From Nitrospirales bacterium (GTDB lineage: Bacteria; Nitrospirota; Nitrospiria; Nitrospirales; UBA8639): a DNA stretch of 64,000 bases. The notes under the pieces were generated by a model, which was not told the DNA's origin, made no database searches, and saw only the letters and a list, made by a program, of their open reading frames with translations. Numbering within the stretch: position 1 is the stretch's first letter; the number at the start of each line of letters is the position of its first letter. Shown in pieces: positions 34,613 to 50,202 of this stretch. Location: contig OY820905.2 of assembly GCA_963555755.3 (NCBI GenBank), forward strand, positions 1,376,001 to 1,440,000. Reading direction: 5' to 3'. Made by a program: the position numbers and the translations under genes.

Positions 34613-34846
34613 GGGTCAGGTCTTGCAGGGCTGAGGGCTGAGGGTCAGGCTGAGGGGCAGGTCTTGCAGCAATACATTTTGGTTGACCTTACACGTGAGG
34701 TTCCTGCTTTAACCATTCCTTATCAATTTTAGAGAAAACGGCCGTGTTGGGATAATTTCCTCATAAGTCAATACTCATGCCTGACCCCTTACCTGAAATA
34801 AAAACCAAAACTCTCTTCCCTATGTGGCACTGCAAGACCTGACCCC
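34613..34846. repeat. module with inverted ends GGGTCAGGTCTTGCA / TGCAAGACCTGACCCC (homolog at 50066-50202)
   Basis: interior 34658-34720 identical to 50069-50131; AGAGAAAACGGCCGTGTTGGGATA shared. Confidence 0.85.
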
Positions 34847-34887
34847 CTACCCTTTATTTATTCTATTTACTATTTACTTTATTTATT

Positions 34888-36336
34888 CTATGTAACTATA
34901 GGTGTGATGATCTTTGTAGTGAATTGTGCAGGCATAAATGGCCGATCATGGCTTGTGAAATGGCTTGCGATGTTGCCGCCCTGCTTTCTCGCGGTAGAAA
35001 GGTAGCTTCGTATGCGGGCGAACTGCCTCGCGCCTTGAAGCGTTCGAAAACACCCGGATATTTTGAGGCGGAGCTTGATCATGCGGATATCCTGTTCTGC
35101 CAGATTATTAGTGAAGGGAACCTGTCTGTCATGGAGGAACGCGAGCACGGAGGCTTCATGCTCGCCAAGACGGGTGAGGAGATTTTGGGCCTTGGTCTTT
35201 TTGGGCCGGCCTCGTGACTTTTTCTGTGGCGGTGCCGGAAGGGGGTTGGCCTGCCATCCGAGGGTGAGAAGATCCCTGTATTGTTTCAGCCAGGGGGTTT
35301 TCTGTTCTTCCGTTAACTGTGCGAGTTGCTTGCTGACAAACACGTTCATCGTCAGCAACAGGTCAAACATGTGTTTGGCCCATGGTTGTTCGTGCTGCTC
35401 GAACAGGCACGTGAGTTCCCGCAAATGATGGGCGTTACAGAGGCCGTGGGCACAGTCATAGGAGAGATAGGGTTTCCAGAAATCGTGGATCAGGCGGCCA
35501 GCAAAATCCGGGAGGATCTGGAACTGCTCGATCGCCTCTCTTCCCCGTTTGGCGTGCACACCGTAAAAGGTCAACGTGGCCGTGCTGGCACTGTGGAGCC
35601 AGTGGAGCGTCCCGGCCGTGCGGACGCCGCTTTCATCGGCATGGAGGATGGGACTCTTGCCGAGCGCTTCTTTGACCGCAGTCTCGAACGGCGCGAGGTG
35701 CTCATAACTTCGGCGGGAGGCCTCGTCAATGGTGGCGTCGCTGACCGAGGCGCCATACAGATCAGCCATCATCTGGCTGACACGGCGTAAGGGGATCAAC
35801 TGTTGGTTCTGGAGGTAGACCAGGAGGCTGCGAAATCTGGGACCGTACTGTGCCGGCGCAGGCAGGTCATCAGGAAATGACGCCGTGACCGAGCGGCCGC
35901 ATTGGGGGCAGGTTTTGATTGCTCCCCGATATTCGGTGACGTCGAGTTTTGGCTCCGGCAGTTCAAAGAGCTGCCGGCGTTCATAGCCGGTGACCGTCTC
36001 GTTGGTGAGGTCGGCATGGCAGGAACAGGAGTGAACAGGCAGGTGGACCAGGTGGTCTGGGGTTTCCACCTGTTTTAACGTCTGGCCGGCATGTCCCTGT
36101 TGGCCGCCCGGCTTTTTCCCGGAAGGTATGCGCAGGCTCTTGGTTCGGGGCTTGGCCGGTCCATCGGACGAGGGCGGTTTGCTGCTGTTGCGACTGTGTT
36201 GGTCGAGCCGCTGTGCCAGTTCGGTGACATGCGTGGTCAGCGCCTGCCCCTGTTCCTGCAGCGCCAGGATCAGTTCGACGAGCGCCTCGGGGTTGCTCTT
36301 GGCCAGGATGAGGAGTGCGTCGCGGGTGAAGGTCAT
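34888..36336 (-). CDS. IS66 family transposase (C-terminus appears frameshifted)
   Basis: SRNSSKPPSSD, PGGQQGH, CPQCG, HADESG, CNAHHLREL, FTNNLAEQDIRMIK. Confidence 0.92.
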   Translation of the reverse strand: MTFTRDALLILAKSNPEALVELILALQEQGQALTTHVTELAQRLDQHSRNSSKPPSSDGPAKPRTKSLRIPSGKKPGGQQGHAGQTLKQVETPDHLVHLPVHSCSCHADLTNETVTGYERRQLFELPEPKLDVTEYRGAIKTCPQCGRSVTASFPDDLPAPAQYGPRFRSLLVYLQNQQLIPLRRVSQMMADLYGASVSDATIDEASRRSYEHLAPFETAVKEALGKSPILHADESGVRTAGTLHWLHSASTATLTFYGVHAKRGREAIEQFQILPDFAGRLIHDFWKPYLSYDCAHGLCNAHHLRELTCLFEQHEQPWAKHMFDLLLTMNVFVSKQLAQLTEEQKTPWLKQYRDLLTLGWQANPLPAPPQKKSRGRPKKTKAQNLLTRLGEHEASVLAFLHDRQVPFTNNLAEQDIRMIKLRLKISGCFRTLQGARQFARIRSYLSTARKQGGNIASHFTSHDRPFMPAQFTTKIITPIVT

Positions 36337-48085: not shown

Positions 48086-48091
48086 GCTGAG

Positions 48092-50065
48092 GTAGAGTAG
48101 AGCACTGGTGCTCATCCTGGAGCTGCTCTCGAACGTTTCGGCGCACGCGCCTACTCCGGGCTAGAGCAGTCAGAAATAACCAGCGCTCCCTCATCAAACC
48201 GTGCATGCGGTTTTCTCGCACACGGCTTTCCGATGTTCTTCAGGCCAAGGCATGCGCCGAGCGCCAGCCCGGTCCCACAGGAACCTTGTACAGCCCGTAA
48301 CGCCCGTAAAGATCAGCATGCGGGAAGCGGCCTAGGCCGCTTCGTCGATCCTTCACCTTATGGCGTTTCATCAAGTGAGTTCGCAGCCGGGCTTCCGCAT
48401 GGTTTCTGACCTTGTTCATCGCCAGACTTGAGTTACGATAGTGGAAATAGTTCGCCCACCCTCTCAGGCTGCGATTGACCGTTCCCACGATAGCACTCAA
48501 GGGAATGGCAGTCAGTTCCCGTTGTGTTAGTGCCGTCAGCCTCGCCTTGATTTTCTTCAGCGATGGCTCCGACGGACGAACATTCGGGTACGGTTTCCCA
48601 GAACGTCCCCCTCGACTCAGCTGAATCGTAAAACCCAGGAAGTCGAAGCTCGCTTGGGTGGCGTCCACGATAGTCGTCTTGGTCTCGTTGAGCGTGAGGC
48701 CCAATCGTGCCAGTACGGCTCGCACCACCTTCAGCGGTTCCACGACATCTTTTCGGCACAGCACGACAAAGTCGTCTGCGTAGCGCACGAGGTGCGCTTG
48801 CAGCTTGTCTTTGAGGTGCCGCCGTTGCCATAGCCGATCCAACTGGTGTAGGTAGCAGTTGGCCAATAGCGGTGAGAGCACCCCGCCTTGCGGCGTGCCT
48901 TTGCTGTTGGCATTCCCGCCACCCACACCCCGCTTCACGCCGTTGTCGTCTTCACCAATGACCGGGGCTTTGAGCCACAGCTTGATGAGGTGCAAGATGC
49001 CACCGTCAACAATGCGCTCAGCGACCATGGCCAGCAGCTTGGCATGCGGGATACTGTCGAAGTAGTTCGACAGGTCGGCGTCTATGACGTGGGTGTAGCC
49101 TGCCCAGAGCGTATGGGCAATGTCGTTCACCGCATCATGGGCCGATCGCTTGGGCCGGAATCCGTACGAATTCGCACAGAAGTCGGCTTCAAAGATCGGC
49201 TCGATGATGAGCTTGACTGCCATTTGCGCCACTCGGTCTCGGATCGTCGGGATCCCTAGCGGACGCAGACTGCCGTCCGCTTTGCGTATCATGACGCGCC
49301 GCACCGGTTGGGCTCGGTAGGTCTTGGCTTTCAGATCACGGGCCAATTCCCGCAGAAACGTGTCTACCCCGATTCCACTCTCTATGGCCTTGAAGCTGAT
49401 CCCATCACTACCGGGGCTGCCTCGATTGGCTCGGACAAGCCGCCAGGCATGATTGAGGATATCCTCCTGGCTGATCTTGTCGTAGAGTGCGTAAAAGCGA
49501 TAGGCCGGTTCTTGCTTGGCCTTGGCATACAGCTTCCTCTGCAGCGTCCTGATCGTCTCCGGGGTGGTTAGCGCCATGGCAATCCCCTGATCCTCCGCTC
49601 TTCGGTTGCATGAACAAAGCAGGGTTCCTTCCCTCGACCGGGGTTGTGTTGTCCCTCGGCCTCAAGCGGTACGATGAACCCCTCCGACTCCCGTTCCGGG
49701 CCGCTGTGATTTCGTTGCCTTATACACATTGGTCGGTGTCCTCCCCACCCCCAAAAACGGGTCTCCAGCACTGGGCTATACGTCTTCCAGAACATGCCGT
49801 CCTTGCTACCCCGGGAGTCGATGGGTGTCACTTCCGTTATTCCAGCACCCTTCCAGCGGCCTTCCCCTTCTGACCACAGGGTCGGCGTCTCCACTTTGTT
49901 TACGAGGCTACTCATAGGTTCACTTGCGTTACGGCCTGCTCTTTTGCTGTGTGGAAACTTACGACCCCGCGTTACCACGACGCCGCTTCCTCATGCTACC
50001 AAGGTGTACGGACAATTCCTTGGACGGGACTTTAACCCGCTAGACATACTGCTGTTACTGCGAAC
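48092..50065 (-). mobile_element. group II intron
   Basis: 5' GTTCG at 50065; domain V AAGCCGTGTGCGAGAAAACCGCATGCACGGTTTG; 3' CTCTACTCTAC; rejoined flanks equal the intact site at 34607-34628. Confidence 0.9.
48240..49577 (-). CDS. ltrA: group II intron reverse transcriptase/maturase (no endonuclease domain)
   Basis: LGIPTIRDRVAQ, SYGFRP, GTPQGGVLSPLLAN, RYADD, FDFLGF, GWANYF. Confidence 0.95.
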   Translation of the reverse strand: MALTTPETIRTLQRKLYAKAKQEPAYRFYALYDKISQEDILNHAWRLVRANRGSPGSDGISFKAIESGIGVDTFLRELARDLKAKTYRAQPVRRVMIRKADGSLRPLGIPTIRDRVAQMAVKLIIEPIFEADFCANSYGFRPKRSAHDAVNDIAHTLWAGYTHVIDADLSNYFDSIPHAKLLAMVAERIVDGGILHLIKLWLKAPVIGEDDNGVKRGVGGGNANSKGTPQGGVLSPLLANCYLHQLDRLWQRRHLKDKLQAHLVRYADDFVVLCRKDVVEPLKVVRAVLARLGLTLNETKTTIVDATQASFDFLGFTIQLSRGGRSGKPYPNVRPSEPSLKKIKARLTALTQRELTAIPLSAIVGTVNRSLRGWANYFHYRNSSLAMNKVRNHAEARLRTHLMKRHKVKDRRSGLGRFPHADLYGRYGLYKVPVGPGWRSAHALA

Positions 50066-50202
50066 GGTCAGGTCTTGCAGCAATACATTTTGGTTGACCT
50101 TACACGTGAGGTTCCTGCTTTAACCATTCCTGCAAAAAAAGTATCAATTTCCAAAGGCAGAGAAAACGGCCGTGTTGGGATATGGCATTGCAAGACCTGA
50201 CC

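Follow-up and report, generated by a model that had tools for sequence, protein, structure and literature searches.

Gene-less TIRtron end pairs in a Nitrospirales genome, and the IS4 copies and group II introns found in their conserved tips

TIRtron repeats occur as monomers, dimers and clusters (Di Nocera, De Gregorio and Rocco 2013, PMC3733652), and the associated TIRYT transposases have been equated with TnpA-Y1 subclass 2.1, in which a HUH-Y1 domain is joined to a C-terminal helix-turn-helix (HTH) of the HTH_23, HTH_28 or Bac_DnaA_C type, the gene is flanked by GGGG[AT][CG]A[CG] inverted repeats, and representatives are present in 14.9% of strains (Quentin et al. 2018, PMC6006769; all papers given here with a PMC number are used as far as their available portions go). 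A related arrangement is that of the REPINs, non-autonomous inverted-repeat pairs whose movement is ascribed to a related HUH-Y1 enzyme, the RAYT, and which are characterised by high copy number alongside a single-copy resident transposase (Bertels et al. 2017, PMC5581495). Here we describe two short non-coding modules, A and B, in a 64,000-nucleotide stretch of a Nitrospirales genome (contig OY820905.2, positions 1,376,001 to 1,440,000; hereafter the window), which an original prediction from the sequence alone had proposed to be internally deleted, REPIN-like derivatives of an autonomous element. The inference holds in its general form, derivation from an autonomous element: the two modules are non-autonomous dimers of TIRtron ends, a kind of repeat already described. 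It is highly probable that they are gene-less end pairs, which a TIRYT enzyme likely copied as whole units, and that both an IS4 element and a group II intron likely target their conserved tip.

The two modules share an identical 63-bp interior, located at 34658-34720 and 50069-50131, with no longer exact match between 34613-34846 and 50066-50202, and the second copy is indeed adjoined by an intron at its left end and by an IS4 copy at its right end, as first noticed (Table 1). We label the end-repeat families of this genome A to H, the modules belonging to family G. Module A is a composite, in which a left end that reiterates itself over 34 nt (34614-34647) is followed by the shared body, carrying deletions of 10 nt and 7 nt relative to module B, then by an A-family end and by a second G-type end (34822-34846) that is unlike the right end of module B. 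An A-family end lies downstream of each module copy. The predicted fold of module B pairs through its two ends only (z -2.6). The 14-mer GGTCAGGTCTTGCA is found 16 times in the 4.6-Mb genome and six times in the window, against an expectation of 0.045 under a fourth-order Markov model.

Table 1. Positions in the window of the modules, of other end repeats and of the elements inserted in them (RT, reverse transcriptase; ORF, open reading frame; EBS1, exon-binding site 1)
Feature	Position	Strand
Stacked ends, G-family 33752-33775 and A-family 33782-33807, directly after higBA pair	33752..33807	-
Module A, outer 7 bp and 34-nt terminal reiteration, every unit restarting at GGCTGAG	34607..34647	+
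Module A, body common to both modules: 63 identical bp followed by two short deletions	34648..34754	+
A-family (second TIRtron family) end repeat inside module A	34763..34788	-
G-family end repeat closing composite module A, free of IS4	34822..34846	-
Solo G-family end repeat, IS4-occupied	46410..46432	-
IS4 copy in solo G-family end; 10-bp duplication 46423-46432 / 47902-47911	46433..47901	-
Module B left end, outer 7 bp (GGCTGAG), pushed away by intron	48085..48091	+
Group II intron, RT/maturase ORF 48240-49577, inserted at CTGACC/C of module B left end	48092..50065	-
Predicted EBS1 (GGUCAG), complementary to CTGACC target	49870..49875	-
Module B, inward-facing pair of G-family TIRtron end repeats, 137 bp, interior non-coding	50066..50202	.
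IS4 copy in module B right end; 10-bp duplication 50193-50202 / 51671-51680	50203..51670	-
Module B right end, outer part reiterated; target of next IS4	51681..51715	.
Third IS4 copy; 10-bp duplication 51706-51715 / 53185-53194	51716..53184	-
Stack of other-family end repeats: ending 53286, about 53352, A-family 53368-53393	53260..53393	-

The module ends fit the TIRtron/TIRYT consensus (GGGGWSAS), as GGGGTCAG at 34839-34846 on the minus strand and in loci of a wider genome collection, and some end repeats of the window carry three G. Eight pattern families account for 183 end-repeat sites and 38 inward pairs in the whole genome, where repeats are also found apart from the gene, singly, in pairs and in clusters, as in the described TIRtrons. 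Profile searches of the same genome gave 17 matches to PF01797, several of them intact genes with family-specific GGGGTCA repeats on either side; there is an intact A-family element at C1:1146651-1147657 and an intact D-family TIRYT at C1:761643-762611, and the C family has three near-identical autonomous elements. Ends of different families lie within 500 bp of each other in 15 of 183 cases, compared with a null mean of 4.5 but a null maximum of 19 over 200 shifts, which does not establish that such ends cluster. A genome of the same genus (G002) contains two 134-bp G-family dimers with another interior. The modules thus share with the described TIRtrons the type of repeat, its position on both sides of a HUH-Y1 gene that encodes a C-terminal HTH, its forms of dispersal and, in some families, an overlap between repeat and ORF end, whereas a cut site, end reiterations and targeting by insertion sequences or introns are not part of the earlier accounts in their available portions (PMC3733652, PMC6006769). 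Compared with REPINs, the modules lack the GTAG/CGTC tag and the short perfect hairpin at each end, are low in copy number (two interiors, 17 G-type ends) and have no intact cognate gene that we could find, and the autonomous gene of the C family is multicopy here (PMC5581495). The comparison with REPINs therefore holds only as an analogy, for a family that already bears the name TIRtron/TIRYT. Further end repeats include an inward H-family pair of 213 bp (window 11763-11975), and two G-family ends 9.7 kb apart (C1:2961514 and C1:2971245), each followed by a similar stretch with tRNA-like sequence, like the borders of an island.

The original prediction also called for an autonomous parent with the same ends, and full-length Y1 elements of this description were recovered from other genomes. 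Searching the genome collection for the G-type end gave at least 119 loci, 39 of them with short flanks; among the 119 listed, 55 have an inward pair within 500 bp, six have a pair spaced at 500-2000 bp and 19 have a Y1 match by tblastn. Full-length G-end elements of about 0.9-1.0 kb number at least nine in the collection (two with a 5' frameshift), with two more in genomes of the same class (L139, L140), and the pairing of G-type ends with an enclosed Y1 gene recurs in many unrelated genomes. The enclosed ORF is a HUH-Y1 gene by Pfam: Y1_Tnp (PF01797) scored above cut-off in all ten proteins scanned (six of the G family, four from this genome), and HTH_23/28/38 matches were obtained for four of the six G-family proteins, the other two aligning across the same tail without a match. 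An alignment of eight G-family and four own-genome proteins displays the NHYH, FQ, Y--LNP and SS motifs, in keeping with the NH[YF]H/NHVH, FQ, Y---NP and SS signatures of subclass 2.1 (PMC6006769).

It had further been suggested that the right ends preserve the tail of a deleted gene, with the peptide MWxCKT or MWHGKT before the stop. The underlying sequence, ATG-TGG-CAn-(T/G)GC-AAG-ACC-TGA, reads as claimed at 33752, 34822 and 46410, and a fourth copy, at 50180, starts with ATA. The idea was reasonable, since in families C and D the ORF does stop on the TGA of the repeat. We nevertheless reject it for the G family, because the motif reads alike at both ends of module B, which translate outward as xxCKT and a stop, and none of the 11 full-length parents has an ORF that ends in CKT; the motif is the non-coding repeat itself in translation. 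The nine elements tabulated have their stop codon 10-72 nt ahead of the TGA in the right repeat, and the ORFs of L139 and L140 also stop before the repeat. ORFs of at least 30 amino acids ending on the motif TGA (loci L020-L099) gave no blastp match to six Y1 proteins of this genome.

Internal deletion, judged from sequence, is demonstrated at the level of the families and not for the focal interior. A G-family relic at C1:359846-360155 has 59% identity to the last third of a parent, and derivatives of about 200 bp keep the HTH tail beside or between ends (C1:3551039-3551240, arranged as end, HTH tail and end; and C1:596053 onwards). In the F family, one derivative (C1:4384546-4384972) retains both ends of the gene and another (C1:4388011-4388137) the leader only. 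The notion of internally deleted derivatives therefore stands for these relics with coding remnants, whereas the interior of modules A and B matches no parent beyond the repeats, although it may be deleted parent DNA.

Evidence on how the repeats move comes from their boundaries. D-family dimers form interior clusters of four, eight and three copies, whose flanks are unrelated beyond about 6-7 nt outside GGTCA, and no target duplication around them was visible on inspection. Perfect tandem reiterations of the end are present at 55 of 135 repeat sites versus 19 of 2396 other GGGTCA sites. The reiteration can start at -6 or -7 from GGTCA in 45 of 46 bounded cases (nine multi-copy cases were set aside), with a far end that varies between about 10 and 57 nt. 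In contigs of two other studies (runs X8 and X9), 34613 is joined to 34648, so that the 34-nt reiteration of module A is missing; an X9 contig has an undeleted interior at the module A position, and another contig joins the right end of the module to the A-family end without IS4 (29 nt on the shorter side).

We infer from these patterns that a transposase nicks and moves the repeats. HUH enzymes form a 5'-phosphotyrosine and leave a free 3'-OH. The start of the scars, 6-7 nt outside GGTCA, is likely to be the nick site. In the proposed mechanism, the C-terminal HTH would bind a family-specific imperfect palindrome within each end (TCTTGCA-W-TGCCACA in the G family), and the catalytic tyrosine would nick the GGGGTCA strand at a point 6-7 nt 5' of GGTCA. 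Joining of the 5'-bound end to new DNA would leave no target duplication, while the free 3'-OH would prime synthesis and, after extension, rejoining at the same site would produce tandem scars with a fixed start and a variable end. Internal deletion or replacement of the interior could then give rise to dimers of 70-200 bp and to solo ends.

A different history would accept the TIRtron ends but treat module B as an immobile relic, copied once by local recombination or gene conversion rather than by a transposase. That there are two copies only, close together in a repeat-dense island, that each has an A-family end downstream and that no intact parent is found in the genome would all fit such a history. 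On the other hand, the only flank common to the modules is GGCTGAG, so identity ends exactly 7 bp outside the left end, at the point where reiterations restart, and sister-family dimers at distant loci share the same boundary. We therefore regard the relic history as unlikely; the same 7-bp limit argues against a single large segmental duplication, which the original prediction had named as the alternative.

Several observations nonetheless weigh against copying by a TIRYT enzyme and targeting of the tip. The two interiors lie 15 kb apart and were unmatched in the 40 relatives searched, in which the left-end pattern of the module was not found either; among the 119 collection loci listed and among the matches listed for 16 same-class loci, the interior matched nothing except the repeats. 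An intact G-family transposase gene was not found in this genome, where the TIRYT gene of this family is represented by fragments only, so that present-day mobility of the focal modules is no more than a possibility. Circular or excised intermediates were not seen in the contigs that made up the material, and the available portions of PMC3733652 and PMC6006769 report no biochemistry of TIRYT. For the targeting considered below, at least two IS4 sites (C1:2782804 and 4599189) fall outside any recognised repeat, and the strict repeat patterns do not cover four of the 17 intron sites.

IS231A inserts in the ends of Tn4430. Insertion sequences have also been located in repetitive extragenic palindromes (PMC1525189), and elements of the IS4 subgroup of the IS4 family, which combine Nterm_IS4 with a DDE domain and generate a 10-bp duplication include some members with strong target specificity (De Palmenaer et al. 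2008, PMC2266710). The element in the window is of this subgroup, its transposase matching NF033592 with 210.9 bits (cut-off 115), and inverted ends are present. All 21 copies, in both orientations, have a 10-bp duplication resembling GGTCAGGTCT, which is exact in 15 copies and has one mismatch in four, two in one and three in one, and 12 of the 17 G-type ends are occupied by IS4. The DDE transposase would therefore be expected to cut across GGTCAGGTCT, within the TIRtron tip. This sets the element apart from its relatives at 42-46%, including ISBvi1, the nearest named element (46%), which duplicate unrelated 10-mers in the two of four loci where a duplication was called by script. A closer homologue (61%), found by protein search at locus L314, sits in a GGGGTCAC-type end with AGATGTGACC as its duplication, and two other homologues show one end only.

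A scan of metagenomes yielded 132 junctions at 125 loci, 36 of them with an IS4 match at 44-95% and seven with both ends and the duplication (105 lay on contigs that were too short, and 20 on long contigs in which none was found); because the scan was queried with the target, it shows spread and not specificity. At L071:3579, in a distant bacterium, a full-length element is neighboured by a G-family end that contains an IS4-type end of the same sequence type. In run X1, one contig connects the two sides of the third IS4 copy (window 51713-53194; 44 nt on the shorter side), which may mean that this copy is missing in part of the population.

The abundance of IS4 at these ends, together with terminal inverted repeats that are typical of DDE elements, raises the question of whether the modules are miniature inverted-repeat transposable elements of a DDE transposase, such as the resident IS4, with the Y1 genes as passengers. 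This is very improbable and has already been largely refuted, since the ends of IS4 are unrelated to those of the modules and the repeat core is duplicated as its target, G-type ends bracket Y1 genes across many unrelated genomes, and no target duplication was visible in the flanks of the D-family dimers.

In its available portion, a review of group II introns lists three bacterial target specificities, with class C introns at terminators and attC sites, and TIRtron ends are not among them (Zimmerly and Semper 2015, PMC4424553). The intron in module B is supported by Rfam RF02005 and RF00029 (domains I-IV and V-VI), by TIGR04416 above cut-off and by Pfam/NCBIfam matches; an endonuclease domain was not matched in its RT ORF. 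Introns of two related types have 17 5' ends in this genome, all of which come after CTGACC or TTGACC. The strict repeat families hold 13 of these 17 sites versus 160 of 1533 GGGTCAR sites (p about 3e-10), and versus sites outside long ORFs (127 of 507 in repeats) p is about 1e-5; these values carry the caveats that long ORFs were masked crudely, that intron sites first drew attention to the E pattern and that the patterns were in part chosen once the sites had been seen. A loop of domain I, GUGGUCAGA, faces the exon CTGACC, and since the equivalent loop in five outgroup introns complements their own, differing exons, this loop is EBS1. The intron would thus reverse-splice at YTGACC/C through EBS1 GGUCA(G). 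A local fold of the EBS1 region gave z 0.02, and no EBS2 pairing was apparent by eye. A reading in which the intron extends further 5' was dropped because the outgroup introns begin at the equivalent position.

The RT was matched in 10 of 401 genomes of the phylum. Seven outside loci in four genomes (64-83% identity) all keep GUGGUCA; six follow YTGACC, the seventh ending in CAGACC beside a tRNA-like sequence, and four are in TIRtron-like ends by eye. In a tree of 19 RTs (four near-copies left out, no named reference RTs included), the seven GGUCA rows make up one side of a branch supported at 99/98. EBS1 is fixed over RTs that are 64-100% identical, whereas outgroup introns vary EBS1 even within one genome.

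These observations suggest, tentatively and at a little under an even chance, that in a clade of endonuclease-less introns EBS1 has become fixed to match the conserved TIRtron tip, and that these introns home to ends of any family, which would be a fourth bacterial target specificity beside homing sites, terminators and attC. The clade might use nicks or single-stranded DNA produced by TIRYT, and together with a dedicated IS4 lineage it would make the ends a shared landing pad with scars that map the cut site. Such introns would resemble motif-specialist introns in settling safely in a sequence that recurs as part of another element, and would differ from them in holding an EBS1 of 5-6 nt fixed on the TIRtron core. 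A real possibility, though one we would place somewhat short of even, is that the location is a by-product: EBS1 may need only YTGACC, with survivors left in repeats by selection or by the openness of intergenic DNA. The short span of the pairing, the four sites of this genome that miss the strict patterns, the outside site by the tRNA-like sequence and the lack of an EBS2 pairing agree with a by-product, while the enrichment over non-ORF sites, with the caveats given above, and the constancy of EBS1 in the clade against its change in the outgroups speak for specialisation.

A twintron is also present in the window (3146-5885). Its outer intron, with the same EBS1 type and a truncated RT ORF, sits in a D-family end at 5886, within a set of reiterated D-family ends (5886-6020), and is of a type with 12 5' ends in the genome; the inner intron encodes an RT (ORF 3445-4758) and has its 5' end just after domain V of the outer one.

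Whereas the modules are known in kind, the specialisation of the intron is a new lead. We found no account of the TIRYT cut site, nor of IS4 or intron targeting of these repeats, in a literature search that lay mostly outside subscription papers, and the available portions of PMC6199540 and PMC7923331 have nothing on a TIRtron-end target. Should the intron clade prove truly specialised on these ends, bacterial group II introns would gain a further target class, and a landing pad shared with IS4 would mean that the scars map the cut site of a HUH transposase for which the accessible literature reports no assay. The modules are of value as a test bed, since intact sister-family TIRYT enzymes and dimers to match them are available in this genome, along with a predicted position for the nick, 6-7 nt 5' of GGTCA. 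TIRtron ends as landing points would also explain the pile-up of IS4 copies, introns and toxin-antitoxin cassettes.

Toxin-antitoxin pairs lie directly beside stacked end repeats, in the manner of cassettes, at 33149-33730, 33899-34493 and 53490-54094 (higBA, vapBC and a second PIN gene), and vapBC differs by 1 nt, at 34028, from contigs of three other runs. Elsewhere in the window, a DruA-like domain is fused to or just precedes an ISAs1-type transposase, and a DruA-like ORF lies just upstream of an IS66 transposase (44567-46314 and 34888-37220). The region 37293-43193 encodes a 1966-amino-acid protein with SpvB, FG-GAP, TcdB middle and RHS domains and 168-bp internal repeats. An intergenic tandem array of about six 91-bp units occupies 54272-54919, and a separate family of short elements with inverted ends of 33-52 bp, unrelated to the TIRtron ends, is found at 26466-26629, 56974-57142 and 20546-20893.

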